A program made the position numbers and the translations under genes. Under the pieces are notes generated by a model. It made no database searches. It saw nothing but the letters and a program-made list of their open reading frames with translations, and had not been told where the DNA came from. A DNA stretch of 64,000 nt from Bacteroidales bacterium (GTDB taxonomy: Bacteria; Bacteroidota; Bacteroidia; Bacteroidales; UBA932): contig JAFRRF010000020.1 in the NCBI GenBank assembly GCA_017428245.1, positions 6,421 through 70,420 of the forward strand, in the 5' to 3' direction. This document shows positions 1,312-59,555 of this stretch, piece by piece (positions within the stretch are counted from its first letter, which is position 1; each line of letters begins with the position of its first letter).

Positions 1312-1883
1312 AAGTTTCCGAAATCCAACTCCGTAACGCCGGCGACCGACTCCAGTTTGAAGGAAAAGGCGCCGGCGGTTTTTATTTCTACGGTGTGGCT
1401 TCCGGCCGTGGTGTAACTGTGCTTGAGGCCGCTGGAATAGGTTTCTTCCGCACCGTCACCCCAGTTGACCTGCCCGGCCATGCTGCTGCCCGTAAAAGAA
1501 GGAAGGACGAAATCGCCCAACGTGTGCTTGATCACAAGCACCTGGTCGAAGGACGGCAGCTGCGTGACAGTAATGCTGCGGGTAAGATCCCGGCAGGTAA
1601 TCGTTACGGAACCTTTACGGGAAGTGGAACGGTCATTAGCCTGTGCCGTGACAGTAATGTTGGCGTTTCCTTTGTCTCCCGAAGCCGGTGATACCGACAG
1701 CCAGGGATCGGAAGCAGTGGCAGTCCAGGAGTAATTGGTCGTCACGCTGACGGACTTGGTACCTCCCTGGGAAGGGAATTCTACCTTCGTATTGTCGAAA
1801 TCGACGGAAGGATCTTCGCGCTCGCAGGCCATCATCCCCAGCACGGCGGCAAGCGACAGGATCAGTATACGGATCTGTTTCAT
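1308..1883 (-). CDS. Lipoprotein with one BACON domain plus a conserved C-terminal WGDG module
   Basis: Lipobox-like signal peptide (LGMMAC). BACON-like segment: FPSQGGTKSVSVTTNYSWTATASDPWLSVSPASGDKGNANITVTAQAN...GSVTI. The C-terminal part matches the paralog at 3709-4545. Start overlaps the upstream stop (ATGA). Confidence 0.8.
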   Translation of the reverse strand: MKQIRILILSLAAVLGMMACEREDPSVDFDNTKVEFPSQGGTKSVSVTTNYSWTATASDPWLSVSPASGDKGNANITVTAQANDRSTSRKGSVTITCRDLTRSITVTQLPSFDQVLVIKHTLGDFVLPSFTGSSMAGQVNWGDGAEETYSSGLKHSYTTAGSHTVEIKTAGAFSFKLESVAGVTELDFGNF

Positions 1884-3712
1884 TTCATTCCCATTTTAAG
1901 CGTCAAAGTCAACTGTTCATCAAAGCGCTTGAAGGTCAAAGTATAGTTTCCCTTCTTCAAGTCGGTCGTCACGATTTTCATCGCAGTCATCTCGTAAGTC
2001 ACGCAGTCTTTTATGGCTGCACCGGAAGCGTCTTTCAAACTCCAGTCCACCAAATCCTTGGTTTCGATGATGATTTCTCCCGAAGTCTTGTTGAACTGGA
2101 AGGAAGTCACTTCGTCGAGTTTCGTCCCGTCGGTTACGGGAATTTCCGTGGAGAGGCCGGCTTTCGGATCGAAAATCGGTTTTTCCCACACGCCGTCAGG
2201 CCAGTCCTGTGCGCGATACACCAGGCAAAGTCTGTCGCCCGGCAAAGGATACGACTGCATAAAACAGCTGATGGAAGGATACCCCCGGCCACTGCCGGCG
2301 GAGAGCTCGTTGAAGGTATTCACATTGCTCACGAACTCTTTGATCTGTCCCTCCGCATCGCAAAGGACGATGGCATATTCACCCATGAAAGGGCGAAGGC
2401 TGCCGTTGTAAAGGAAGCCGGCCCTGATTTTGAAAGAAGTGTGGGGAACGATTGTCTCATCACACTCGATTCCGTTATAGACGGTTCCGCTGCTGCTGGA
2501 AGTACCGCCCTGGAAATAGAGATATTCCAGCGACTGTCCGCCGTCCCCTTCCTTGGGTTTGAGGCCGAAAATGGCGCCGTGACTGTAGAGATACTTCCTG
2601 CTCTCGGTCGGAGTAAAGGCGGAAAGGGCGTAATAACCGTTGCTTGATCCGCCCCATCCCCAGTTGACGCTGACATTTCCCTGCTCGTCGTATCCGTCGA
2701 CAAGGAAGGCGTGGCCGCCGGTCTCCCGGCGGGCCGAATAAAGGATCGGACGTTCCTGAAGCTCAGCTTTGAGCATATCCAGCCACTGTTCGTCGCCGAA
2801 CAAGTCACGCTTATAATGATAGGCACCGGGGTCGAAGCCGAAATATTCGACGGCACAGCCGGCCATTTTCGGCGTACTGGCGCTCGTGGATTCATCGAAT
2901 TTGGCCTGCACGGCGACACCGCAGTCATACACCAGACGGGCCACAGCCTCACCTTCCTCCTGCGTATAGCCATCACGGTAATCGAACTTGATCTTGTCCC
3001 ACTCGTAAGGGTGTCCCAGGTCAAACCCTTCGATCGTACACTTCGAGCCGTTATCTAGGTCATAACTGTAACTTTCAAGTTTCCCCTCTCCCTTGGGCGG
3101 GAAACCGTAATAACGCATGATCATACCCATTGCCAGAGGCACGCAGCCGATAACGGCGTGAGCATCGCCGACCATCGGGGTCAGGCCGTTGAACGGGGCC
3201 GTCTGCTTCCAGACCGGCGTCACGTGTTTGACGGCCGGTTGAAAATCGCCACCCGCCTTGGTCCGGACGAACAGGGCGTCCCAGGATGCTTTCGCAGCCC
3301 GCTTGTCCACGGCACCCGCCCTGACAAAGGCGACCTGCTGTTCGAGTTCTTCCAGCCAATCAACGAGATTCTCCGGCATATCGGCGCCGGTCCCGAACGA
3401 TTCGTCGAACGAATAAGCCAGCACAGGGCGGCAGTCATCCTCGCCGGCAATAATCACGAAACCGCCGCCTGCACGGTTAAAAATGAAGTAGGCCGGCTGT
3501 TCGTCGCCCGCCTTGGTCAAAGGAGCGTGCGTGAGTTCCACCGCCTCAAGCGGAGCCATCCGGCGGGCGAAATTGCGGTCGTTCTGGAAAAAAGCCTTCG
3601 CCGTTTCCCCGGCCCGGAACGCATCGACCGGATCGGCCAGAACCGGGAATGCAGAGAGCCACGTCAGTAGGAGGCCTGCAAATAAAACTCGTACCCTTTT
3701 CATATGAATCAA
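1880..3712 (-). CDS. C10 family (streptopain-like) cysteine peptidase with N-terminal pro/inhibitor-like region
   Basis: Signal peptide present. Catalytic Cys context is GCVPLAMGMIMRYYGFP and catalytic His context is GGHAFLVDGYDEQGNVSVNWGWGGSSNGYYAL, both typical of peptidase C10. About 200 aa of extra C-terminal sequence. Confidence 0.9.
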   Translation of the reverse strand: MIHMKRVRVLFAGLLLTWLSAFPVLADPVDAFRAGETAKAFFQNDRNFARRMAPLEAVELTHAPLTKAGDEQPAYFIFNRAGGGFVIIAGEDDCRPVLAYSFDESFGTGADMPENLVDWLEELEQQVAFVRAGAVDKRAAKASWDALFVRTKAGGDFQPAVKHVTPVWKQTAPFNGLTPMVGDAHAVIGCVPLAMGMIMRYYGFPPKGEGKLESYSYDLDNGSKCTIEGFDLGHPYEWDKIKFDYRDGYTQEEGEAVARLVYDCGVAVQAKFDESTSASTPKMAGCAVEYFGFDPGAYHYKRDLFGDEQWLDMLKAELQERPILYSARRETGGHAFLVDGYDEQGNVSVNWGWGGSSNGYYALSAFTPTESRKYLYSHGAIFGLKPKEGDGGQSLEYLYFQGGTSSSSGTVYNGIECDETIVPHTSFKIRAGFLYNGSLRPFMGEYAIVLCDAEGQIKEFVSNVNTFNELSAGSGRGYPSISCFMQSYPLPGDRLCLVYRAQDWPDGVWEKPIFDPKAGLSTEIPVTDGTKLDEVTSFQFNKTSGEIIIETKDLVDWSLKDASGAAIKDCVTYEMTAMKIVTTDLKKGNYTLTFKRFDEQLTLTLKMGMK

Positions 3713-4545
3713 AAATCAGAAATATCTATGATGGAAATGCCGCCGATGCCCATCTCGAAGGCGGTGGCGCCAAAGAGATTGAAGGTCACGGTGACATCGG
3801 AAGCCAAATACCTGTGCGACAACGTGGGCTCATAATCCGTCCACGTGCCGTCACCCCAGTGTACTTCCCCGACAACACCGTCGCCGGTGATGAGGGGAAC
3901 GCGGAAAACCAAACAGTTGTGCTTGATCAGCAGCACCTGGGAAAGATAGGGTTTCTGGCGGACCTTATAGGTGAGACTCAAACTGTTGCACGTCACCGTC
4001 ACGGTGCCATCACGGACGATACCGGTATTATTTGCTTCCACGCTGATTTTCAAATTGATATTACCCTTTTTTCCGTACGTCGGCTCAACGATGATCCAGG
4101 AACCGGAGACCTGGGTCATCCAGTCGTGGTTGGCGGAGAGACTCACGGTTGCAGAGCCGCCTTCGCCCGGTATCTCGACGAGCGTCAGGCTTTCGGAAGT
4201 CAGGCTGGTGTCATCTTCCTGGCTCACGGAAATGCTTTTGGTCAAAGTCAGGCAGGTCACCGTCACGCTACCTTTACGAGCCTTCCCCGAACTGTTGGCA
4301 TCGACCGTAATGTTCAGCGAAGCGGTACCTTTCCGGCCAGAGGCCGGAGATACGTGAATCCAGGGATCGGAGGCGGTGGCACTCCAGCCATAATTGGTCG
4401 TCACCCCCACGCTCTGGGATGCGCCTGCGGCCGCGGCTTGAATGGAAGTGGAGCCATCGAACACGATGGAAGGCTCTTCCAGCTGGCAGGAAATCGCAAG
4501 GAGCGCTGCAAAGCCTATCGAAAGAAGCTGTTTCGTCTTCATCAT
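3709..4545 (-). CDS. Lipoprotein with two BACON domains plus a conserved C-terminal WGDG module
   Basis: Lipobox (LLAISC). Two BACON-like repeats: GASQSVGVTTNYGWSATASDPWIHVSPASG... and GGSATVSLSANHDWMTQVSGSWIIVEPTYG.... C-terminal VLLIKH...VHWGDGTWTDYEPTLSHRY is shared with 1308-1883. Confidence 0.8.
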   Translation of the reverse strand: MMKTKQLLSIGFAALLAISCQLEEPSIVFDGSTSIQAAAAGASQSVGVTTNYGWSATASDPWIHVSPASGRKGTASLNITVDANSSGKARKGSVTVTCLTLTKSISVSQEDDTSLTSESLTLVEIPGEGGSATVSLSANHDWMTQVSGSWIIVEPTYGKKGNINLKISVEANNTGIVRDGTVTVTCNSLSLTYKVRQKPYLSQVLLIKHNCLVFRVPLITGDGVVGEVHWGDGTWTDYEPTLSHRYLASDVTVTFNLFGATAFEMGIGGISIIDISDF

Positions 4546-6371
4546 TTTCCCGTTTTAAGCGTGAAGGAATAATAACCCAGTTGAGGTTCGCCTCGGTCCA
4601 GGATGATGGTATAGGTATCCTTGGAGAGCGTGGAAAACGCAATCTCGATGGTCTTGTCGGCTGTCGTGACACCCTGGGCCACAACCGTTCCCGTCGATTT
4701 CTTGACCGACCATTTCACCCGGTCCTTGGTCTTGATCGTACACTTCCCGGCCGTCTTGTCATACCTGAACGTGGTCTCGATCACGAGATACGTGTCGTCG
4801 GCCTGCACGGGGATTTCTTTCACGAGGTCGGGGTTTTCCAGGTAATACAACGGCTCCTTCCATACGCCCTCGGGCCAGTGGTCGCTGCGATAGAAGAGCG
4901 TGATCTTGTCGCCCTCCAACGGGTAACAGGTCATGTTGCAGGGGATATTCCAGAAACTCACGCCTCCCAACGGCTTTAATTCCCCGAACGATCCTTCCTC
5001 GGAAATCCTTTCCACGATATTCCCCTCCCGGTCGGTAAGGGCAAAGAAAAACTTGCCCGCGAAAGCAGTGACTCCGCCGTTCCAGACGTATGCTACGCCC
5101 ATCTTGAATTCCTGGCCCCTGACGGGCGTGGACAGGGCGTACATTCCGTGCCAGTCGTCATCACCATTCATAAAAAGGTACTCCTCGGGCTGGCCACCCT
5201 GTCCCTTGTCGGGGACGAGGCCCAGAACGGTGGTATGCGCGTATTTGAAATGGGAGTTCGCGCCGAGCACGAACGCCGACAGGGCGAAGTAGCCGTTGCT
5301 GCTTCCACCCCAGCCCCAGTTGATGCTGAGGAAGTCCTGATTGTCGTAGCCGTCGACCACGAAACCGTGGCCACTGTCTTCACTGCTTCCCGCATAAAGG
5401 AGCGGATGCTCCTGCAATTCGGTCTTGATCATGGACATCCACTCTTCGTCGGTAAAGTACATCCGCTTGATATGGTTGACATTGGGATCGTAGCCGAAAT
5501 ACTCGATGACGGCTGGAAGCAGATTCCAGAAGTTGGTATCAGTTCCTATCGAGGAGGTATATTTCGCCTTGGCAGCCACACCCACGTCAAACATCAGACG
5601 GGACACGGCCTCCGCCTCCTCCTGCGTATAGCCCTTGGAATAGTCGAGTTTCATCTTGTCCCACTGGTAGGGATAACCCAGGTCGAAGCCTGCGACGCTA
5701 CCCTTCTCGTCCTGATACGCCCAGTCGTAGGACGGAAGAGAGCCGGTGCCCGCAGCAGGATACTTGAAGAACCGCATCACGATGCACATAGCTGTAGGAA
5801 CGCATCCGGTATAACCCCGTTTGCCGCCACTGATCGTCGGACAGTACAGGTTGAAGGGGTCGCCCTGATTGAAAAGCGCCGTCTCGTGTTTCACCTCGGG
5901 TTTGAGGTTGTTTCCAGCCTTGGTGGGATACTGCGCCGACATCCACTGGGACTTGGCCAGGTCAGCGGATTTCTGCGGGACGCCTTGGGCACGGACGACG
6001 GCAACCTGCTCTTCGAAATCGGCAAGATAAGCTTCCAATGCGGGAATTCGCTCCACATCCGCAAAATCATTCTCGTAGGAATAAGCCAGAACCGGCTTGC
6101 AGAGGTCGTCGCCAGCAATGATCACGAAACCGCCGCCTTCCCGGCTGAAGATATGGAAGGCCGACGTCGCATCGCCCGACTTGGTAAGCGGCGCTTCATA
6201 CAGGTTCACGCGGTGGAACGGGGACATCCGCCGGCCGACATTCGGGTCGCTTTGGAAAAAGACGCGCGCCACCTCGCCCGCCCGGGAAGCATCGACCGGG
6301 CCGGCAAAGGCCGGCGCAACGAGGGGCAGGACGAGCAGAACGCTCAGGAAGTAACGGGTATAACGTTTCAT
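4542..6371 (-). CDS. C10 family cysteine peptidase (paralog of 1880-3712)
   Basis: Motifs TGCVPTAMCIVMRFFKYP and SGHGFVVDGYDNQDFLSINWGWGGSSNGYFAL. The N-terminal pro-region aligns with the paralog (FFQSDPNVGRRM... versus FFQNDRNFARRM...). Confidence 0.9.
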   Translation of the reverse strand: MKRYTRYFLSVLLVLPLVAPAFAGPVDASRAGEVARVFFQSDPNVGRRMSPFHRVNLYEAPLTKSGDATSAFHIFSREGGGFVIIAGDDLCKPVLAYSYENDFADVERIPALEAYLADFEEQVAVVRAQGVPQKSADLAKSQWMSAQYPTKAGNNLKPEVKHETALFNQGDPFNLYCPTISGGKRGYTGCVPTAMCIVMRFFKYPAAGTGSLPSYDWAYQDEKGSVAGFDLGYPYQWDKMKLDYSKGYTQEEAEAVSRLMFDVGVAAKAKYTSSIGTDTNFWNLLPAVIEYFGYDPNVNHIKRMYFTDEEWMSMIKTELQEHPLLYAGSSEDSGHGFVVDGYDNQDFLSINWGWGGSSNGYFALSAFVLGANSHFKYAHTTVLGLVPDKGQGGQPEEYLFMNGDDDWHGMYALSTPVRGQEFKMGVAYVWNGGVTAFAGKFFFALTDREGNIVERISEEGSFGELKPLGGVSFWNIPCNMTCYPLEGDKITLFYRSDHWPEGVWKEPLYYLENPDLVKEIPVQADDTYLVIETTFRYDKTAGKCTIKTKDRVKWSVKKSTGTVVAQGVTTADKTIEIAFSTLSKDTYTIILDRGEPQLGYYSFTLKTGK

Positions 6372-18775: not shown

Positions 18776-18780
18776 CAAGC

Positions 18781-19116
18781 GGCAAGCTATTCTGTCGCGC
18801 CGCCCTCGGGCGGTGAGGAAAGTCCGGACAGCGCAGAGCGCCTCCCTGTGGAAAGCACAGATGGGTGAAAGTTCATGGAGCGCGTAACAGAAAACAACCG
18901 CCGGTTTAGCTCGGACTTGATCCGGGTCCGGCAAGGGTGAAAACGCGGGGTAAGAGCCCACGACCGGCGTCGGCGACGCCGCCGGGGTACGCACCGGAGG
19001 GCTGCAAGGCCAAATATATCGGCGTCTGAGGGCTGCTCGCCCGAGCCGAGGGGTAGGCTGCATCAGATAAATGACAGAAGCCCGCAAGGGTACAGAATCC
19101 GGCTTACCGGCTTGCC
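18781..19116 (+). ncRNA. rnpB: RNase P RNA (bacterial type A)
   Basis: Universally conserved GAGGAAAGUCCGGAC (18815-18829), ACAGAAAACA, GGUAAGAGCCCACGA and ACAGAAUCCGGCUUA segments. The 5' ggcaagc pairs with the 3' gcttgcc (P1), and a T6 run follows. Ends are approximate (a few nt either way). Confidence 0.88.
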
Positions 19117-19128
19117 TTTTTTTAGAAT

Positions 19129-20463: not shown

Positions 20464-20536
20464 GCCACTTTAGCTCAGTCGGTAGAGCAGCGCATTCGTA
20501 ACGCGCAGGTCGGCAGTCCGAGTCTGCCAAGTGGCT
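20464..20536 (+). tRNA. tRNA-Thr (anticodon CGT)
   Basis: Hand-folded cloverleaf. Acceptor GCCACTT/AAGTGGC. D arm GCTC-AGTCGGTA-GAGC. Anticodon arm GCGCA-TTCGTAA-CGCGC. Variable loop AGGTC. T arm GGCAG-TCCGAGT-CTGCC. Discriminator T. CCA is not encoded. Confidence 0.85.
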
Positions 20537-20540
20537 CAAG

Positions 20541-50910: not shown

Positions 50911-51675
50911 ATGGCAGATTTTATCCGATGGTTTGACACGGTTGACTCGACCAATACCCGCCTGATGGCAGACAAGGCCGATCTGGCCGACCGCAGCGTC
51001 TATGCCGCTATGTTCCAGACCGCCGGAAGGGGCCAGAAAGGAAACCGCTGGGAGAGCCGCTCCGGCGAAAACCTCACTTTTTCCATTCTCCTGAAACCCT
51101 CTTTCCTGCCGGCATCCGAGCAGTTCATCCTCTCTCAGGTCGTCGCTCTCGGGCTGACCGACTATCTGCTGGAGCAAGGTGTGGAGGCGACCATCAAATG
51201 GCCCAACGACATCTATGCCGGCGACCGGAAGATCTGCGGGACCCTGATCGAGAACACGCTTTCGGAAGGCCGGATCGCCGCCGCAGTGGCAGGCATAGGC
51301 CTGAACGTCAATCAGCGGGAATTCGACCCTTCCCTGCCCAATCCCACCTCGCTGTCCCTGCAGACCGGGCGGGAATACGACGTACGGGAGGAACTTCCCA
51401 AACTGCTGGCCTGCATCTTCCGCTATTACGAGCGGCTCGACTCGCCCTATGCCCGCAACGGATTCGACGCGATGTATCTGGAGAAACTCTACCGACGCGG
51501 TTGCTGGCATTCTTTCGAGGAGATGCCCGCCAGCGACATCCCGACCGAACACAGGTCGGGCCGCCGCATCGAAGCCCGGATTCTGGGCATTGACACGGAG
51601 GCCCGGCTGTTGCTGGAGCTCCGCGACGGAACGCTCCGGCACTACGGATTCAAGGAAATAAAATATCTCCTCTAG
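50911..51675 (+). CDS. birA: Biotin--[acetyl-CoA-carboxylase] ligase, group I (no N-terminal HTH)
   Basis: GRGQKGNRWESRSGENLTFS (GRGRxGRxW-type motif) and KWPNDIYAGDRKICGTLIE. At 254 aa it starts directly in the catalytic domain. Confidence 0.9.
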   Translation: MADFIRWFDTVDSTNTRLMADKADLADRSVYAAMFQTAGRGQKGNRWESRSGENLTFSILLKPSFLPASEQFILSQVVALGLTDYLLEQGVEATIKWPNDIYAGDRKICGTLIENTLSEGRIAAAVAGIGLNVNQREFDPSLPNPTSLSLQTGREYDVREELPKLLACIFRYYERLDSPYARNGFDAMYLEKLYRRGCWHSFEEMPASDIPTEHRSGRRIEARILGIDTEARLLLELRDGTLRHYGFKEIKYLL

Positions 51676-51682
51676 CATTTCA

Positions 51683-51886
51683 GCCGTTCCGTGACGTGGC
51701 TGCTCCTCATGGCTCGCGACAGGGGCGTCCTTCGCTCCAGTCCCTTGACGGCTAACTCCTCCCTCTTAGGCTCGCCTAAGGCAAGCCTAACGGTCGTCAA
51801 ACACACGCCGTCACTTTGACGGGACTTCCGCTTGTCCGCCTCTTTCCTGCCGCTCGCAAATCGTCGCATCCACGTTACGGAACGGC
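51683..51886 (+). repeat. Structured intergenic repeat, copy L
   Basis: The 168-nt core (51703-51870) is enclosed by a 17-bp closing stem, gccgttccgtgacgtgg (51683-51699) / ccacgttacggaacggc (51870-51886), with one G-T pair. The core matches the reverse complement of 54507-54673 with 17 substitutions and one 1-nt indel (hand alignment). Confidence 0.9.
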
Positions 51887-54496
51887 ATGTCCAGTATTCT
51901 TCCATATGAATATTTTCGTATTTTTGCAGGAAAGCACTACGAATTCTGTTCTGATCAAATGCTGTATGTTGTTCTCATACTGCTCTCTGTTGTCATCTGT
52001 TTTTGGGTGTCGATTCGGATTCGTGCAAAGAGAGAGGAAAGAATTCATCGCTTAGAGACCCTCATCCATATTCAGCCACTTGTTGAGGCAGCGCTTGACG
52101 AACTCATTTCTTTTTACAGTTATAGCCATTTCATCACTGAATCCGAGCGCATCGCCCTGAACGAGAAATATACCGACCTGTTCAAAGAAGTATCCTCCAT
52201 TATTTCTTGTAAGGAATTGGAAGAATCTCCGCATAAGGAAAGCATCCTTCGCTTCTATAATGCGATGTCCGACAGCCAGGGCCACAAAAAGGCCAACAAT
52301 GATCATTTTATTGAAAACCAACTGATTGTTTGCTCCCGGTATTTCGATACTGTGCTCTCATATCCACTTGATGGGCAACAACGGGAATCGGTTTTGTCTC
52401 TGGAAGATAATGTACTGGTCATCAGTAGTGCCGGAAGTGGCAAGACAATGACAACCGTCGGAAAGGTACGCTACCTGATTGATGTTCAAAAAGTCTCCCC
52501 AGAGAAGATCCTGCTGATAACCTTCACCCGAAAGGCAGCAGAGTCCCTGTCTGAACGCTTGGGAGAGAAGAAACTCAAATGCAACACCTTTCACAAACTT
52601 GCTTTGGATATCATCGGCGAAGCAACTGGGGAGAAGCCAAGCATAACCGGCAAAGACTTCTCTGTTCAAGTATATCACAAACTCTTCCAAGAAAACGATT
52701 CGTTCCGCCAGGCGGTTGCGGATTACATTATTCGAGCCCGCTACAAAATGAAGGATCAGTTCGAGTATACTTCGATGCAAAAATATATGCAGGACCGCAA
52801 AAAGCATGGCATTCCAGCATACTTCAAGGATATTGATGGTCATCCCGTTTTCTGCAAATCTGATGAAGAAAGCCAGATATGCGATTTCTTGGGTTCCCGA
52901 GGCATCAAGTTCCGATATGAAGAGAAATACGAGATACCCACAGTGGATTCCGATCATCGACAGTATTGCCCGGATTTCTCAATTTACATTGACAATCCAT
53001 CCGGCAAATCCAGACGTGTTTATCTTGAGCATTTCGCTGTCAATGAAAACGGCCATTGCCCAGCATTCTTCACTTCGGAAGATGAACATAAATACAAATC
53101 CGGTATCATCTGGAAACGCCAATTACATCAGCAGAATGGGACCACCTTGATTGAAACCACTAGTGCAGGATTCCACCGAGGTGATGTATTTCATGTCCTG
53201 ACCCAACAATTAAAGGACTTAGGAGTCGTCTTCAATGAATCTATAAACCAAAATCTTTCCCGGGAATTGGTCAGACAGGAAGAGAGTATCCTGAATATGC
53301 TGACATCCTTCAATTTCTTATTAAAATCTCGCGATAAAAGTATTGAATCAATCCGTCGGCAAGCATTCATGACTATAGACTGGTTCACAGTAAATGAACT
53401 CGTCACTCCGTTTATCGAAGCTTACCGAAAAATGGAAAAGGATAATAATCTCATCGATTTCACCGATGCTATCATCCGTGCTACTGAACTCTGCAACAAC
53501 GGATATCGCCCAGACTACGATTACATTCTTGTGGATGAGTTTCAGGACATCTCCCTGGACCGATATCATTTCCTTCAGTCACTTCGTCGTGAGAAACCGC
53601 TTACAAAACTCTTTTGCGTCGGTGACGACTGGCAGTCCATTTATCGCTTCGCCGGTAGTGATATGGCTCTTTTCAAGCACTTTGAGGACTACTTCGGCTA
53701 CACGAAGAAATGTCTGATGGAAACAACCTATCGTTTCGGGGAACCGGCGATAGAGCAGTCATCAAAATTCATCCTCGCCAATCCGGAACAGGCCGTTAAG
53801 AAAGTCCATCCCTTCCGGCATGAATCCGAAACCAAATTGGACTTCATACCTACACAAAGCCGGGATGATATAGTGAGAACCATCAAGAGACTGTCGGACC
53901 AGACTTCTCCAGATAAAGAAATTCTGCTGCTCGGCCGTTACTCATTCGATATCAACGTCTTCAAAAACACTGACATATCCATTCACGACGGAGCAGACTA
54001 TATATCATACGGACAACGGAAAATGCGTTACATGACTGTCCACCAATCCAAAGGTTTGGAGAGCGACTATGTCATCTTGATCAACTGCAATGGTGGAACG
54101 ATGGGCTTTCCGGCTGATATCTCGGACAGTCCTGTACTCAGATATGTTCTGACTGAACCGGATGCCTATGTATTCAGCGAAGAACGTCGTGTCTTCTATG
54201 TTGGAATAACCCGGGCAAAAAAACATACCTGGGTACTTTACGACCAAAACAATCCTTCGCCTTTCGTCAAGGAGTTTGTAGATATTGATGAAGAAGAAAA
54301 CGAAAACATCATCCCCGAATCAGAGCGCTGCCCGAAGTGTCACTGCGGCCGAATCATCGTGGCTAAAAGAGGAAAAGCCGTCAACGGTAATCCCTATTCT
54401 GTGCTGATCTGCTCCAATGAAAAGTACGGATGTGATTACAGGGAAACTGTGTTCGTGAACCTCAACAAACCCAGACAGTACCCAAAAAGAAAGTAA
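51887..54496 (+). CDS. Membrane-anchored SF1 UvrD/Rep/HelD-like helicase with an inserted PD-(D/E)xK-like module and a C-terminal topoisomerase-type zinc ribbon
   Basis: Walker A SSAGSGKTMT (52427-), Walker B ILVDEFQD, VGDDWQSIYRFAGS, TYRFG, MTVHQSKGLESDYVIL and VFYVGITRAKK. The insert contains QYCPDFSIY...RVYLEHF. C-terminus is CPKCHCGRIIV...LICSNEKYGCDY. An alternative start is at 51959. Confidence 0.85.
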   Translation: MSSILPYEYFRIFAGKHYEFCSDQMLYVVLILLSVVICFWVSIRIRAKREERIHRLETLIHIQPLVEAALDELISFYSYSHFITESERIALNEKYTDLFKEVSSIISCKELEESPHKESILRFYNAMSDSQGHKKANNDHFIENQLIVCSRYFDTVLSYPLDGQQRESVLSLEDNVLVISSAGSGKTMTTVGKVRYLIDVQKVSPEKILLITFTRKAAESLSERLGEKKLKCNTFHKLALDIIGEATGEKPSITGKDFSVQVYHKLFQENDSFRQAVADYIIRARYKMKDQFEYTSMQKYMQDRKKHGIPAYFKDIDGHPVFCKSDEESQICDFLGSRGIKFRYEEKYEIPTVDSDHRQYCPDFSIYIDNPSGKSRRVYLEHFAVNENGHCPAFFTSEDEHKYKSGIIWKRQLHQQNGTTLIETTSAGFHRGDVFHVLTQQLKDLGVVFNESINQNLSRELVRQEESILNMLTSFNFLLKSRDKSIESIRRQAFMTIDWFTVNELVTPFIEAYRKMEKDNNLIDFTDAIIRATELCNNGYRPDYDYILVDEFQDISLDRYHFLQSLRREKPLTKLFCVGDDWQSIYRFAGSDMALFKHFEDYFGYTKKCLMETTYRFGEPAIEQSSKFILANPEQAVKKVHPFRHESETKLDFIPTQSRDDIVRTIKRLSDQTSPDKEILLLGRYSFDINVFKNTDISIHDGADYISYGQRKMRYMTVHQSKGLESDYVILINCNGGTMGFPADISDSPVLRYVLTEPDAYVFSEERRVFYVGITRAKKHTWVLYDQNNPSPFVKEFVDIDEEENENIIPESERCPKCHCGRIIVAKRGKAVNGNPYSVLICSNEKYGCDYRETVFVNLNKPRQYPKRK
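51919..51926 (+). promoter_or_regulatory. Candidate -7 box (TATTTTTG) inside the listed 5' end of the helicase ORF
   Basis: Matches TAnnTTTG. If it is used, the helicase starts at the in-frame ATG at 51959 (MLYVVLILLSVVICFWV, a TM helix). Confidence 0.4.
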
Positions 54497-54687
54497 TCAA
54501 GGCAGGGATACGACGATTTGTGAACGGCAGGAAACAGGCGGACAAGCGGAAGCCCCGCCAAAGTAACGGCGTGTGTTTGACGACCGTTAGACTCGCTTTG
54601 GCGAGGCTAAAAGGGAGGAGTTAGCCGTATAGGGGCTGGAGCGAAGGACGCCCCTGCCGCGAACCATGAGGAGAATCCCTGCCTTGA
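54497..54687 (-). repeat. Structured intergenic repeat, copy R (inverted relative to L)
   Basis: The core (54507-54673) is enclosed by a 13-bp perfect closing stem, tcaaggcagggat (54497-54509) / atccctgccttga (54675-54687). It starts at the nucleotide after the helicase stop codon and lies 27 nt downstream of the rpe stop on the minus strand. Confidence 0.9.
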
Positions 54688-54713
54688 TTAGGCAGTAAAG
54701 GATAGACAGAACA

Positions 54714-55373
54714 CTATTTCGCTTCCATCAGAGCCTTGATGGCAGCTTTCGGATCGTCTGCGGAGAAAGTGGCGGAACCGGCCACGAAGACGCCGGCACC
54801 CAGCCGCTCAAGCTCCGCGATATTCGACACATTCACGCCGCCGTCCACCTGGATGAAGCAGTCGGCTTCGGCGCCGGCGATCATCTCGGCGAGCACACCC
54901 ACTTTCTCGGTAGTCTCGGGAATGTATTTCTGGCCGCTGTAGCCCGGATGTACGCCCATCACCACCACATAGTCGATGTCGCGCAGATAAGGAATCAGCA
55001 CCTCGGCCGGAGTCTCCGGATTCACAGCCACGCCGGCTCCCATCCCGAAATCGTGAATCATCTTGATGCACTCCTTCAAGTGACGGTCGTTACACGCCTC
55101 ATAATGAACGCTAAGATACTTTACACCGAGCGCAGCGAAGCGCTCGATATAACGACACGGCTCGATAATCATCAAGTGCGCGTCGAGCGGCTTTTTCGCC
55201 ACTTCGGCAATAGCCTTGCACACCGGGAAACCGAACGAAATGTTCGGAACGAAAACACCGTCCATCACATCGAGATGGAACCAACCCGCCGCACTCCGGT
55301 TCACGAGACGGCAGTCGCGATGCAAATTGCCGAAATCGGCGGAAAGCATCGAAGGAGCAATCACCCGGGGCAT
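54714..55373 (-). CDS. rpe: Ribulose-phosphate 3-epimerase
   Basis: IAPSMLSADFGNL, HLDVMDGVFVPNISFG and MGVHPGYSGQKYI. Start moved to MPRVIAPS (55373), not the listed 55526, which overlaps pepD. Confidence 0.92.
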   Translation of the reverse strand: MPRVIAPSMLSADFGNLHRDCRLVNRSAAGWFHLDVMDGVFVPNISFGFPVCKAIAEVAKKPLDAHLMIIEPCRYIERFAALGVKYLSVHYEACNDRHLKECIKMIHDFGMGAGVAVNPETPAEVLIPYLRDIDYVVVMGVHPGYSGQKYIPETTEKVGVLAEMIAGAEADCFIQVDGGVNVSNIAELERLGAGVFVAGSATFSADDPKAAIKALMEAK

Positions 55374-56808: not shown

Positions 56809-58236
56809 TTATGCGTTGAGCGCCCGCTCGATGTCATGGACGAAACCGCGGAAACTGCGGTCGGTATCCATCAGGTCATTGACCGTGTTGCAGGCGTGAA
56901 GTACCGTCGCATGGTCCTTGCCGCCCAACTGGGCGCCAATGGACGAAAGGGAGGTCTTTGTCAGATTGCGGCTCAGATACATCGCAATCTGGCGCGCCTG
57001 CACGATTTCGCGCTTGCGCGTCTTGGAAAGGAAAATTTCGTCGGTAATGCCGAAATAGTTGCAGACCGCTTCCTGGATCCGCGGAACCGTGATTTCGCTC
57101 TTGGGATCGGTGACGATCTTGTCGACGAGCCGCTGGGCGAGATCCAGCGTGATTTCCTGATGATTGAAAGTGGCGTTGGCGATCAGGGAGAAAAGGATGC
57201 CCTCCAACTCACGGATATTCGTCTTGACGCTCCGCGCTACGAACGCAAGCACGTCCTCGGCAATTTCCACACCCTCTCGGGCACATTTCGCCTGAAGGAT
57301 CGCAAGACGCGTCTCATAGGCCGGCGGAAGCAGTTCCGCAGAAAGTCCCCACTTGAAACGGGAGAGAAGACGCTGGTCAAGGCCCTGCAGGTCCACGGGC
57401 GGCTTGTCGGAGGTGAGGATCAACTGCTTTCCGCTCTGGTGCAGATAGTTGAAGATGTGGAAGAATGCACCCTGCGTGCCCTTCTTTTCAGCGAATTCCT
57501 GAACGTCATCGATAATCAGGACGTCGATGAGCTGATAGAAGCGGAGGAAATCGGCCACCTTGTTGCCGTTGTTCGCGCTCTTGGCCGAACAGGCGGCGTT
57601 CATATACTGGTTCTGGAAAGTATTGGCGCCCACATAAAGCACCACCTTCTCAGGAAAACGCTCCTTGACCGCAATGCCGATGGCCTGCGCCAGATGGGTC
57701 TTGCCCAGACCGGGACCGCCATAGATGAACAGCGGATTGAAAGTGCTCCGTCCGGGGTTGGCAGCGATGCTCTCACCGGCGGAACGGGCCAGCCGGTTGC
57801 AACTGCCTTCGATAAAATTCTCGAAATTATAGATCGGATTGAGACAGGGCTCGATGTTCAGCCGGCGGAGACCCGGAATGGCATAGGCGCTGCCCGTATA
57901 ATGCGCGCCCGCCTCGGGAATCGGCAGTTCCGCATTGCGGATCCGGCCGCCCTTGGGACGCTGCTCGATGAAAATGTCGTCGAGGATGCGGACTTTGTAA
58001 ACCAGGGAGGCGGAAGGTCCGATCTCACGGCGGAGCACCTTGCTCAGCAGGCCGATGAAATGCTCTTCGATATACTCCCGCCAGAAGTCAGACGGTACCT
58101 CGATCGTAAGCCGCTGGTCCTCCAGGGAGATCGGCTTGATCGGTCCGAACCAGGTCTTGAAAGTCTCTTCGTTCAGGTTATCCCTGAGGATTTCAAGGCA
58201 ACGGGTCCAAACTTCTGTCTGTCTTTCGGGAATCAT
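56809..58236 (-). CDS. dnaA: Chromosomal replication initiator protein DnaA
   Basis: NPLFIYGGPGLGKTHLAQAIG, LIIDDVQEF, and the C-terminal DNA-binding domain (REIVQARQIAMYLSRNLTKTSLSSIGAQLGGKDHATVLHA). Confidence 0.97.
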   Translation of the reverse strand: MIPERQTEVWTRCLEILRDNLNEETFKTWFGPIKPISLEDQRLTIEVPSDFWREYIEEHFIGLLSKVLRREIGPSASLVYKVRILDDIFIEQRPKGGRIRNAELPIPEAGAHYTGSAYAIPGLRRLNIEPCLNPIYNFENFIEGSCNRLARSAGESIAANPGRSTFNPLFIYGGPGLGKTHLAQAIGIAVKERFPEKVVLYVGANTFQNQYMNAACSAKSANNGNKVADFLRFYQLIDVLIIDDVQEFAEKKGTQGAFFHIFNYLHQSGKQLILTSDKPPVDLQGLDQRLLSRFKWGLSAELLPPAYETRLAILQAKCAREGVEIAEDVLAFVARSVKTNIRELEGILFSLIANATFNHQEITLDLAQRLVDKIVTDPKSEITVPRIQEAVCNYFGITDEIFLSKTRKREIVQARQIAMYLSRNLTKTSLSSIGAQLGGKDHATVLHACNTVNDLMDTDRSFRGFVHDIERALNA

Positions 58237-58340
58237 ACTCGGGTCTAAGTTTCGACAACAAAATTGGGGAAAAAAAGGTGATAAAAAAAACTTTTTTTGA
58301 TTGTTTTTTTCAAAAAAAACGCAAGTGCCTAATTATCAAG

Positions 58341-58376
58341 AAAAAAAAATTTCAGGTTTTTGTTTTTACCTGAAAA
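58341..58376 (-). terminator. Intrinsic terminator downstream of the amidase gene
   Basis: On the minus strand, the stem tttcaggt/acctgaaa (58350-58357 / 58368-58375) is followed by T9 (the complement of the A-run at 58341-58349). Confidence 0.75.
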
Positions 58377-58460
58377 TCAGCAAATTACAAGCGCACGAAG
58401 TGGCTACATTATTGAAAATAATAGAGTTAGAAAAACAGTACGGTTGAAAGACCGGCAGCG

Positions 58461-59555
58461 TTACTCCACCGCGATGACGAAAGCTCCGGAAAATTTCTTC
58501 CTAATCTCGGGAAGCCGGGCCAATGCAGCTTCGCGCGTCGGGAAATTACCAACAGAATATTTGTACATTCCGTTGATAAGTCTGCATTGGTATTGTGTCA
58601 CCCCTTTCAACTCGGCCGATCCGTTTTTCAACTTTTTCGAGGTGGCCAGAATCTGGATTTCATAGTGCGGTCCGGCAATGGCCGCCTGCTCGTCGACAGG
58701 CTCCGTCGGGGAGAGCATCGACTCGTCGATTTCAATGACGGCGTCGGAATCGTACTGCTGTTTGAATGTGGAGAAAGCCCTGAAAATATCATCGGCGATC
58801 TTCTGGCGGTTGGCGGCATTATTGAGCGTCGTACGGTCGTTGGCATTGGAAAGGAAACCCACCTCGACAAGAACCGAAGGCATCGTAGTGCGCCAAAGCA
58901 CCATAAGCGGCGCCTGACGGATACCCCTGCTCTTCCGTATCGGTCCGTTTTTGACAAACTGCTGCTGTATCAGCGCGGCGAAAGCGATGCTCTGTTCGAA
59001 ATGCGCGTTCTGCATCAGGTTGAAAATGATATAGGATTCCGGATTGTTCGGATCGAATCCTTCGTACGTAGTGGAATAATCGTCTTCCAGCAGGATCACA
59101 GAATTCTCCCGCTTGCACACCTCCATATTCGACTGGCTCTTGTCGGTACCCATCACGAACGTTTCCGTACCCGAAGCGGCAGTACTTCTAGCCGAATTCA
59201 CGTGGATGGAAATGAACAGGTCGGCATGGTTCCGGTTGGCGATGTTGCCACGCTCGGCAAGTTCGACGAAGCGGTCGGTCTTCCTTGTATAGATTACTTT
59301 CACATCCGGTAATTCCTTCTCGATGCGGGCCCCAAGCTTCAATGCGAGATCCAGGTTGATCTGCTTCTCGCTCATCTTGCTGCTCTTGGAAATCGCTCCC
59401 GGGTCGTGTCCGCCGTGACCGGCGTCTATGACCACCGTACGGAGGCGGATTCCGCCATCCTGTGCCTGAGCCAGTGAAGAAGGAAAAAGCGCCGGCAGGA
59501 GCGCCAGCAGCAGGATTCCAGACCGTCGGAGAAGGTATTTTACGCGAGATGGCAT
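58461..59555 (-). CDS. N-acetylmuramoyl-L-alanine amidase (Amidase_3) with C-terminal SPOR domain
   Basis: Start moved to MPSRVKYLLRRSGILLLALL (59555). VVIDAGHGGHDPGA, ISIHVNS and GFLSN. C-terminal YEIQILATSKKL...YKYSVGNFPTREAALARL is SPOR-like. Confidence 0.85.
   Translation of the reverse strand: MPSRVKYLLRRSGILLLALLPALFPSSLAQAQDGGIRLRTVVIDAGHGGHDPGAISKSSKMSEKQINLDLALKLGARIEKELPDVKVIYTRKTDRFVELAERGNIANRNHADLFISIHVNSARSTAASGTETFVMGTDKSQSNMEVCKRENSVILLEDDYSTTYEGFDPNNPESYIIFNLMQNAHFEQSIAFAALIQQQFVKNGPIRKSRGIRQAPLMVLWRTTMPSVLVEVGFLSNANDRTTLNNAANRQKIADDIFRAFSTFKQQYDSDAVIEIDESMLSPTEPVDEQAAIAGPHYEIQILATSKKLKNGSAELKGVTQYQCRLINGMYKYSVGNFPTREAALARLPEIRKKFSGAFVIAVE

Follow-up and report, generated by a model that had tools for sequence, protein, structure and literature searches.

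A 64-kb stretch of Bacteroidales DNA, referred to below as the window, contains a gene for a helicase of the UvrD/PcrA family that is bracketed by two inverted copies of a hairpin-forming repeat and lies between the convergent host genes birA and rpe. The repeat belongs to a family, designated element E, with more than 130 copies in metagenome-assembled genomes (MAGs) and metagenomes of rumen Bacteroidales. The bracketed segment is present in some strains and absent from others, low-GC DNA with defence genes is found on the 3' side of element E, and the cargo at several loci changes at that edge. On balance, element E is probably a hairpin-repeat boundary, or landing pad, for defence cargo, as judged from sequence comparison. 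How defence systems enter and move between chromosomes without an integrase or a transposase is a standing question, and defence hotspots are usually defined by conserved flanking genes alone; here, a specific DNA structure marks the exact junction of host and cargo, with fixed polarity, at many loci and in many species of uncultured rumen Bacteroidales. Comparison contigs and loci are labelled L followed by three digits, and bare L and R denote the two copies of the repeat in the window (E_L and E_R).

An insertion between birA and rpe

The left host gene, birA (biotin-protein ligase; 50911-51675, + strand), was identified by Pfam BPL_LplA_LipB (E = 1e-17) and by the same call on metagenome contigs, and ends in a TAG stop at 51673-51675. 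The right host gene, rpe (ribulose-phosphate 3-epimerase; 54714-55373, - strand), was identified by Pfam Ribul_P_3_epim (E = 9e-62) and by a 219-aa call on metagenome contigs. Between the two stops lies a segment of 3,038 bp (51676-54713) that comprises both elements, short spacers and the helicase gene and is absent at empty sites. An empty site, which an earlier note made from the window alone had suggested seeking in relatives, was found in the conspecific L010, whose BirA protein is identical to that of the window. In L010, which has neither repeat nor the helicase, birA and rpe abut with their stops overlapping as CTAG (2744-2747); identity to the window is 99.3% in the left flank and 97.8% in the right, and the alignment runs through 51677 and restarts at 54721. 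The same junction, with overlapping CTAG stops (at about 1925-1928 in L158 and about 5762-5765 in L160), was present in L158-L161, from lineages with BirA 90% and 82% identical to the window's, and a 47-nt spacer separates the two genes in L162 and L163 (BirA 81% identical). Relatives that lack the insertion and have the CTAG overlap have no intergenic DNA and no terminator between the convergent birA and rpe. The overlapping-stop junction in L010 and in related lineages indicates that the abutting arrangement is the ancestral state and that the 3.04-kb block is a derived insertion.

The GC content was measured as 41-47% inside the bracket and 55-62% in the flanks, in agreement with the AT-rich interior that the earlier note had judged by eye. 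Its statement that the locus has no integrase, transposase or tRNA target was also borne out: neither enzyme was found among the genes flanking the insertion (rsfS, ftsH, birA, rpe, an M20 peptidase gene and dnaA), and the sole tRNA of the window is at 20464, away from the locus. Compared with an integrase-type genomic island, the locus has no integrase or tRNA, and its flanking copies are full-length and inverted. On these sequence features the segment is not a classical island or insertion sequence (IS); it is an inserted, horizontally acquired cassette.

The same module is also present in another strain, L095, with identities of 98.2-98.9% in the flanks, 99.2% in the cargo, 100% in E_R and 96.6% in E_L. 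The 3' end of rpe in the window (the last ~25 nt, 54717-54737) differs from L010 at 8 positions and resembles the rpe end of the 81% lineage, which suggests that the occupied allele was moved between lineages by homologous recombination. A 4-bp target-site duplication (TTTC) was considered and dropped, as L162 shows the same rpe 3' end without the insertion, and a family-wide scan for duplications at boundaries based on minimum free energy was too noisy to use. Altogether, the birA/rpe junction was seen in four states. It may be empty or filled as in the window; in L082/L124 it holds a solo element that belongs to a different subfamily and has the orientation of rpe; and in L030, birA is followed by a solo L-type element and then by native-GC genes other than rpe.

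The two copies bracketing the helicase

Copy L (51703-51871) was aligned with the reverse complement of copy R (54506-54673) over 169 nt at 89.3% identity (E = 3e-60; BLASTN and global alignment), with 17 mismatches and one 1-nt gap, the same numbers that the earlier note had obtained by hand (17 substitutions, one indel, ~89%). A repeat finder reports this pair as two gap-split arms (I1 and I2), and no third copy was found within the 64-kb window. Each copy is part of a longer hairpin unit. The complete unit of copy L is ~204 nt (51683-51886, + strand; inverted-repeat pair I3) and that of copy R ~197 nt (54494-54690, - strand; pair I4). The 5' ends face outward, to birA for L and to rpe for R, and both 3' ends face the cargo. 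The predicted folds have energies of -91 kcal/mol (L; z = -6.4) and -84.5 kcal/mol (R; z = -7.2), and single-strand folds of the ~200-nt units gave z from -6.4 to -7.8 against shuffled controls.

The closing stem of L consists of 17 bp, including one G·T, formed by the 5' half GCCGTTCCGTGACGTGG (51683-51699, +), which is homologous to the arms of L030, and the 3' half CCACGTTACGGAACGGC (51870-51886, +). The closing stem of R is perfect over 16 bp (54494-54509 with 54675-54690), and its inner arm overlaps the TAA stop of the helicase gene (54494-54496); the stem thus starts at 54494 rather than at 54497, where the earlier note had placed it. The closing stems of L and R have no sequence relationship to each other. 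The subfamily unit that the copies share (169 nt, 51703-51871, + strand in L; 168 nt, 54506-54673, - strand in R) also occurs in L030, L029 and L054/L070/L096, where the closing arms differ. Within it lies a core conserved family-wide, defined by conservation over 108 copies and a covariation count, at 51740-51814 (+) in L (nhmmer E = 1.5e-22) and 54564-54635 (-) in R (E = 1.6e-20). In L, the core contains the helix P_a (51746-51752 with 51807-51813), the variable hairpin P_b (51766-51776 with 51780-51790) and the conserved strands ACGGCTAACTCCTCCCT and TAACGGTCGTCAAACACACGCCGTC.

Copy L also matches L030 over its full length at 91%, and the L030 copy likewise follows birA; two compensatory differences separate the arms of these orthologous copies, an A-T to G-C change and an indel present in both arms. 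Derivation of the closing arms from the target or from the cargo was rejected, as there is no intergenic DNA at the empty sites and the arm sequences are not contained in either end (5' or 3') of helicase homologues. Metagenome gene callers place a 77-aa open reading frame (ORF) through element L on the opposite strand (51672-51905, -, in the window; 6762-6995 in L005). This antisense ORF is very likely a false call that the repeat has induced, because R has no equivalent ORF of at least 80 aa.

One of the scenarios raised in the earlier note was that the segment can invert by recombination between the repeats. A phase-variable 2.6-kb cassette of this kind is very improbable. Invertible DNA is common in gut Bacteroidales, 169-nt inverted repeats at 89% identity could support flipping, and whole solo elements were found inverted between lineages. 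The helicase nevertheless has a single orientation in all contigs listed for the locus and in L095, and its probable promoter lies inside the segment, so that flipping would not switch the gene. Furthermore, no invertase or recombinase was found nearby, and copies adjacent to cargo hold a fixed polarity.

The helicase cargo

The bracketed gene (51959-54496, + strand; GC 41-47%) encodes an 845-aa superfamily 1 (SF1) helicase of the UvrD/PcrA family with the Pfam domains UvrD-helicase, AAA_19 and UvrD_C, an N-terminal hydrophobic segment, an insert of ~170 aa without assignment and a C-terminal Cys4 zinc ribbon. The best PADLOC matches were RTasHel, the model for DRT-associated helicases, and GajB, and the best PDB matches were UvrD, PcrA and Rep, with GajB weaker. 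The cargo thus shares the SF1A UvrD-type helicase core of these proteins. It differs from Gabija in being the only gene in the insert, without a gajA gene, and in its extra hydrophobic segment, ~170-aa insert and zinc ribbon, and its function is putative. Somewhat more probably than otherwise, the horizontally acquired helicase gene represents cargo of the anti-phage type.

The longest ORF of the helicase opens at 51887, and homologous loci align only over 51913-54467. A block shared by the homologues comprises the promoter-like sequence TTTTCGTATTTTTGCA and the start ATGCTGTATGT. The true start is almost certainly the ATG at 51959, because homology begins at 51913, the start is conserved and metagenome gene callers agree. 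The earlier note was therefore right that the L stem ends at 51886 and that the longest ORF begins at 51887, but the abutment that it saw in these positions is an artefact of ORF extension, and ~25 nt separate the L stem from the onset of helicase-locus homology. The Bacteroidetes -7 promoter box has the consensus TAnnTTTG, which is matched by TATTTTTG at 51919-51926 (+), in a block conserved upstream of homologous helicases in unrelated contexts (L154-L156). This box is likely the promoter of the helicase gene and likely came in with the cargo.

More than 1,600 helicase homologues were found, and those outside the birA/rpe locus are at most 80% identical. The nearest (74-80% identity in amino acids) are on contigs of 44-51% GC in other contexts, none with element E, and one of them adjoins an ORF6N gene; those nearest in nucleotide sequence (78%) are on contigs of 44-46% GC. 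These low-GC contexts without the repeat indicate that the helicase gene and its promoter derive from a source of lower GC and as a rule move without the repeat; a helicase that travels with the repeats was rejected on the same observation. A homologue of 74% identity was found in an integrative element in L157 (1-4443 and 5001-7565) with genes for a tyrosine integrase, an excisionase-like HTH_17 protein, AAA_25 and DUF6371, and by this example the helicase family also rides conventional mobile elements.

Distribution, polarity and cargo of element E

Copies of element E were collected with exact core motifs. A 20-mer taken from the 3' part of the core yielded 22 true loci, in MAGs of rumen Bacteroidales, and a second, independent motif, a degenerate 20-mer of the 5' part, yielded at least 120 metagenome loci; each motif was conserved in the loci ascertained with the other. 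Bulk gene calls at these loci were crude ORF calls. Several loci are strain variants of one another, so that the counts exceed the number of independent events; four hotspots and five or six pair modules are independent loci. Two MAGs carried element E on two contigs each, and two copies were found on one 242-kb contig and two on one 44-kb contig. Most copies are single and intergenic, with convergent gene junctions the commonest setting (42 of the 98 classified contexts). Direct arrangements were seen twice, in L047, where two copies stand in tandem ~270 nt apart (1558-1628 and 1830-1900, both -), and in L098. At the gmk/nadD junction (L013 versus L035, and L089), a 187-nt solo element is inverted between collinear flanks; the element, at 90% identity, is more conserved than the flanking coding DNA (78-83%). 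Many contigs end in or beside a copy (e.g., L008, L019, L023 and L085), and many contigs with birA are no longer than 1-3 kb. Short-read assemblies evidently break at the repeat, and inverted pairs are for this reason probably under-counted.

Polarity was assessed in the 72 copies with at least 1 kb on each side by comparing the GC content of 1.5 kb per side. The 3' side was lower by more than 0.06 in 32 of these copies and the 5' side in one; with a cut-off of 0.08, the counts were 30 and 0. The low-GC DNA on the 3' side encodes defence functions. In L041 this is a Cas9 of 1,371 aa (1439-5551, -), whose gene starts 288 nt from the 3' side of an element copy (core at 5839-5910); the sister locus L077 has the flank and the element in common with L041 but not the cargo. 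The 3' side carries a type ISP restriction-modification (R-M) gene in L107, Mrr in L058, a McrB-like ATPase in L130, an AAA_15 ATPase with PLD-SNF2 in L111, a Schlafen-type helicase in L018, L068 and L086, HKD+Snf2 in L029 and HNH in L119. A WYL regulator and a PHP-AAA ATPase were found in L054 and L085, the latter with an additional restriction-type endonuclease. Further cargo, on the 3' side or between paired copies, includes a Mokosh-like helicase with DUF2726, UvrD-like helicases and HTH with HNH. In L058 (core start 3666), ~200 nt of the host flank (-289 to -91) are repeated directly at +204 to +404, with 90% identity to the L107 flank, which has the appearance of a long duplication around the element.

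Other cargo bracketed by the same repeats, which the earlier note had proposed to seek, was also present. Inverted, inward-facing pairs (+ then -) enclose low-GC cargo in L021/L071 (the Mokosh-like helicase with DUF2726), L032 (HTH and HNH), L012 (a TPR protein) and L085 (the WYL regulator, the PHP-AAA ATPase and the endonuclease). The partners are mutually closest in L021 (92.5%) and L032 (89.5%), with next best matches of ~80%, and L and R of the window belong to the same small subfamily. L115 and L018 are read as the two ends of a module with Mokosh-like and Schlafen-type helicases that is bounded by inverted elements, a better account of these contigs than an inversion of the Schlafen/Mokosh segment, which was rejected. 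Cargo homologues adjoining elements are only 28-66% identical, and there was no sign of the same cargo at several loci or of recent transposition of one module.

Four hotspots share the same host flank and an orthologous element E, followed by cargo that differs by strain. Next to a rubrerythrin gene the cargo is Mrr, a type ISP R-M gene or a UvrD-like helicase. Next to a gene for a 196-aa protein it is a Schlafen-type helicase (followed by a Mokosh-like helicase in L018), a McrB-like gene, HNH or a fourth, unannotated variant (L142). A DUF2200 gene is followed by UvrD-like, Mokosh-like or other cargo, and the L041-type flank by Cas9 or other cargo. In every comparison, homology stops where the 3' arm ends, at +156 to +211 nt from the core start. 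Cargo turns over exactly at the 3' edge of element E. Where two loci had only one flank in common, it was the 5' (host) side for 47 pairs and the 3' side for 20. The earlier note had not foreseen an element that marks the boundary of defence cargo across the family. It had considered that the repeats might be ubiquitous REP-like elements without preference for inserted genes; the family is dispersed, yet its association with inserted low-GC defence genes is strong and polar.

These observations bear on the view that element E is an ordinary intergenic palindrome, similar to repetitive extragenic palindromes (REPs), enterobacterial repetitive intergenic consensus (ERIC) sequences or MITEs (miniature inverted-repeat transposable elements), and that its association with foreign DNA reflects a common preference for permissive or recombinogenic sites rather than a part in capture. 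Such a palindrome would disperse by itself and come to rest between genes, convergent ones above all; the helicase would have landed between two copies, or the copies beside the helicase. We consider this unlikely, though it is the most plausible of the alternatives. The many solo copies among housekeeping genes, the enrichment of convergent junctions noted above, the solo copy of another subfamily at birA/rpe (L082), the solo L-type copy after birA (L030), the solo copies in opposite orientation at orthologous sites and the tandem direct copies in L047 would all fit a palindrome of this kind, and REP dimers with DNA inserted between the partners are known (PMC3733652). Independent settling, however, would not be expected to produce a polarity of 32:1 (30:0) toward low-GC DNA, to place cargo-swap breakpoints on the 3' edge of the element, to leave both copies and the cargo jointly absent in the closest relative or to yield the specific relationship between partners seen in L021 and L032. 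The variation of the arms between copies is also a misfit for a MITE with ends recognised by a transposase. If element E is merely a passive repeat, its polarity still needs an explanation.

Structure of element E

Element E is ~200-260 nt long (197-204 nt in the window) and has a host-like GC content. Its conservation is nested: a universal core of ~75 nt lies within a subfamily-specific inner unit, which in turn lies within locus-specific arms that have near-perfect self-complementarity over up to ~60 bp. The core is near-invariant and asymmetric and reads GACGGCTAACTCCTCCCTTTTA, a variable hairpin, then TAACGGTCGTCA(A/G)ACA(C/G)ACGCCGTC. Across 38 diverse cores, 90% of the cells of helices P_a and P_b were paired, compared with 75% in shuffled controls (0 of 500 shuffles as high), and the covariation score was 0.328 versus 0.096 in shuffles; sliding the helix partners cut pairing to 26-48%. 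No one-sided change was seen at any pair of the core helices, and G·U occurred once in 601 cells. Isolated mismatches in the arms (G·T 54, A·C 74, others 111) showed no RNA-strand bias. Because pairing is strictly Watson-Crick and without strand bias, action as a DNA hairpin or cruciform fits the sequences better than action as RNA. A reading as non-coding RNA was dropped: the reverse strand folds better in 99 of 108 copies but is the G-rich one, the arm mismatches show no clear bias and the core helices lack G·U.

A role at the transcript level, as a strong structured terminator, an insulator or an element of RNA stability, is improbable on this evidence. In such a role it would protect host genes and toxic defence genes from read-through and would have been selected along with foreign genes at their borders. 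The single-strand fold is very stable, elements often stand just after a co-oriented stop (78 versus 41 opposed by the crude gene calls, median distance 126 nt), each window copy follows a convergent essential gene, and a T-rich run follows the 3' arm of R in R orientation, all of which a terminator would explain. Set against these are the near-absence of G·U and of one-sided changes in the core helices, the arm mismatches without strand bias and a 45-nt invariant core that termination does not need. In several polar cases (rnhB, L011 and L060) the host gene on the 5' side is divergent, so that element E cannot be its 3' untranslated region. A match to an Rfam family was lacking even at E = 10: Rfam 15 gave nothing relevant at the gathering score for the whole window or at E up to 10 for the locus. 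A canonical Bacteroidetes promoter was not seen by eye in the core on either strand.

Phage and plasmid collections gave no match to element E, nor did three motif scans of the 2.9 million viral contigs of IMG/VR, and an origin from phages or plasmids was rejected on these results. Full-text literature searches found no description of the element.

A probable boundary or landing pad for defence cargo

The preferred reading, in which element E is a boundary or landing pad, would account for the window as follows. Its state is birA, E(+), promoter and helicase, E(-), rpe, with the 5' side of each element facing host DNA. The 3' edge would be the junction at which foreign cargo, mostly defence genes, is inserted, kept and exchanged, and element E would be the cis-acting site that mediates this capture or exchange. 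Two routes may be envisaged. In one, a trans-acting enzyme, as yet hypothetical, would recognise the folded core; in the other, recombination between strains and between loci would use element E as a portable homology anchor. Solo copies would be landing pads, or scars left after loss of cargo. An inverted pair with common self-complementary arms contains direct repeats, and we hypothesise that recombination between these deletes the cargo and leaves a solo copy in either orientation, which would account for both the solo copies and the flipped orthologues.

A more specific proposal is possible but rather doubtful: that element E is the cis site of an undescribed hairpin-DNA system for gene capture or exchange in Bacteroidales, the enzyme of which would recognise the folded core and join DNA at the 3' edge. 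Such joining would give rise to polar defence hotspots at scattered sites and to small cassettes enclosed by inverted hairpins. The locus-specific, perfectly paired arms, the compensatory indels and the flipped solo copies would arise as side effects of the way in which hairpins are copied or resolved.

As regards the order of events at birA/rpe, arrival of E_L, helicase and E_R as one block is favoured by their joint absence in the closest relative, and placement of the helicase between two resident, inward-facing elements is favoured by the solo elements in L030 and L082 and by the elements retained at the hotspots. Insertion between pre-existing elements, a scenario of the earlier note, is thus supported by these solos and by the resident elements at the four hotspots, but the closest relatives lack both elements. 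Its scenario of a mobile unit with terminal inverted repeats agrees with the all-or-none polymorphism and with the inverted pairs elsewhere; the outer tips differ, however, helicase homologues occur without the repeats, and no transposase was found at the locus.

Several observations weigh against element E as a boundary or landing pad, or limit how far this can be taken. The data from the window fit both joint and stepwise arrival of E_L, helicase and E_R. The outer arms of L and R are unrelated, unlike the ends of classical transposons, and the empty-site comparison gave no clear target-site duplication. After birA, a lineage of only 79% identity has an L-type element whose arms are homologous, while the site is empty in closer relatives. 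The L012 pair is heterogeneous, larger cargo regions lack a second copy within 6-9 kb, and roughly half of the copies stand alone, with ordinary housekeeping genes on either side. The comparative data come only from assemblies of uncultured organisms. Mobilisation is hypothetical, because no recombinase, transposase or HUH enzyme was found in ~150 loci: a regular-expression search for the HUH motif (HUH...Y..NP) gave no ORF in these loci or in the window, and no recurrent transposase or integrase was among the families listed from a Pfam scan of 128 neighbouring ORFs.

Element E provides a sequence handle for finding defence cargo, including systems not known so far, in Bacteroidales metagenomes. 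It also allows a search for the enzyme that would read it and a test of hairpin-DNA gene capture outside integrons.

Other features of the window

GC content drops to 39-45% in the intergenic region at 58000-58800, upstream of dnaA (56809-58236, -), which could be the replication origin; the insertion lies ~2-3 kb from dnaA. The only Rfam and ARAGORN matches in the window were a class A RNase P RNA (18779-19122, +; 199.9 bits) and tRNA-Thr(CGT) (20464-20537, +), both unrelated to the insertion.

Comparison with known systems

Element E resembles REPs, bacterial interspersed mosaic elements (BIMEs), REP doublets forming hairpins (REPINs) and REPtrons in being a dispersed, intergenic hairpin repeat whose structure is kept while stem sequence varies. 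Like REPs, it occurs singly and in inverted doublets, some of which have DNA between their two members, and a gene may be bracketed by inverted copies. CGTC tetranucleotides are also shared, and in element E these sit inside helix P_a of the core. On the other hand, element E is 5-10 times longer (200-260 versus 20-40 nt) and is built around a large, asymmetric, invariant core of ~75 nt rather than a short palindrome. The genes bracketed by it are defence cargo and not, as in REPtrons, genes for REP-associated tyrosine transposases (RAYTs), no ORF with an HUH motif was found in any locus, and polar association with foreign DNA is not a described property of REPs. Bacteroidetes RAYT (TnpA_REP) genes of subclass 2.6 are reported to have on either side 'atypical secondary structures' that are found again at other places in the genome (PMC6006769), and these structures are a candidate lead to an enzyme that reads the folded core.

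MITEs, mobile insertion cassettes and MITE-flanked integrons are similar in that they are non-autonomous, have inverted copies flanking passengers and leave a clean empty site, and presence/absence polymorphism at orthologous sites was indeed observed for element E. Shared terminal repeats were not: L, R, L029 and L054 have unrelated outer arms around an inner unit of 85-91% identity, a pattern also seen in other subfamilies. The outer ends of element E are thus unconserved, no cognate IS is known, and the same cargo and ends were not seen at two loci.

The attC sites of integrons, such as Vibrio cholerae repeats (VCRs), are likewise host-specific, structured, palindromic sites that border foreign ORFs, often with defence functions and of different composition, and show conservation of structure above that of sequence in part of the site, a junction at the site edge and cassette content that varies by strain. 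Pairs of element E are inverted, not direct, and copies are dispersed and mostly single, without an array beside intI/attI. The element is longer than attC and is conserved at its centre, not at its ends. The core has a single GTCTAAC, without an inverted GTTRRRY partner at the other end, the RYYYAAC...GTTRRRY pair is absent, the ends are variable, and no integrase was among the families listed for ORFs neighbouring element E. The pdif sites of Acinetobacter plasmids are 28-bp XerC/XerD sites that depend on Xer. They are comparable in having accessory modules between inversely oriented recombination sites and no recombinase in the module, but element E has no dif-like sequence on reading of its sequence, is at least 200 nt long and is chromosomal. 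Defence hotspots in core genomes share with the loci described here a single chromosomal position that holds different defence systems, or nothing, depending on the strain; the border formed by element E is a specific, repeated, structured element with fixed polarity, and not just conserved genes or a tRNA/integrase att site.

Element E therefore resembles REPs/REPINs, MITE cassettes, attC and pdif in separate respects and lacks defining features of each, and the polar bounding of defence cargo is a well-supported and, among dispersed hairpin repeats, unusual property. By analogy, the capture system proposed above might possibly, though with less than even probability, be a functional counterpart of integron attC/attI or of REP-RAYT, with an architecture of its own.

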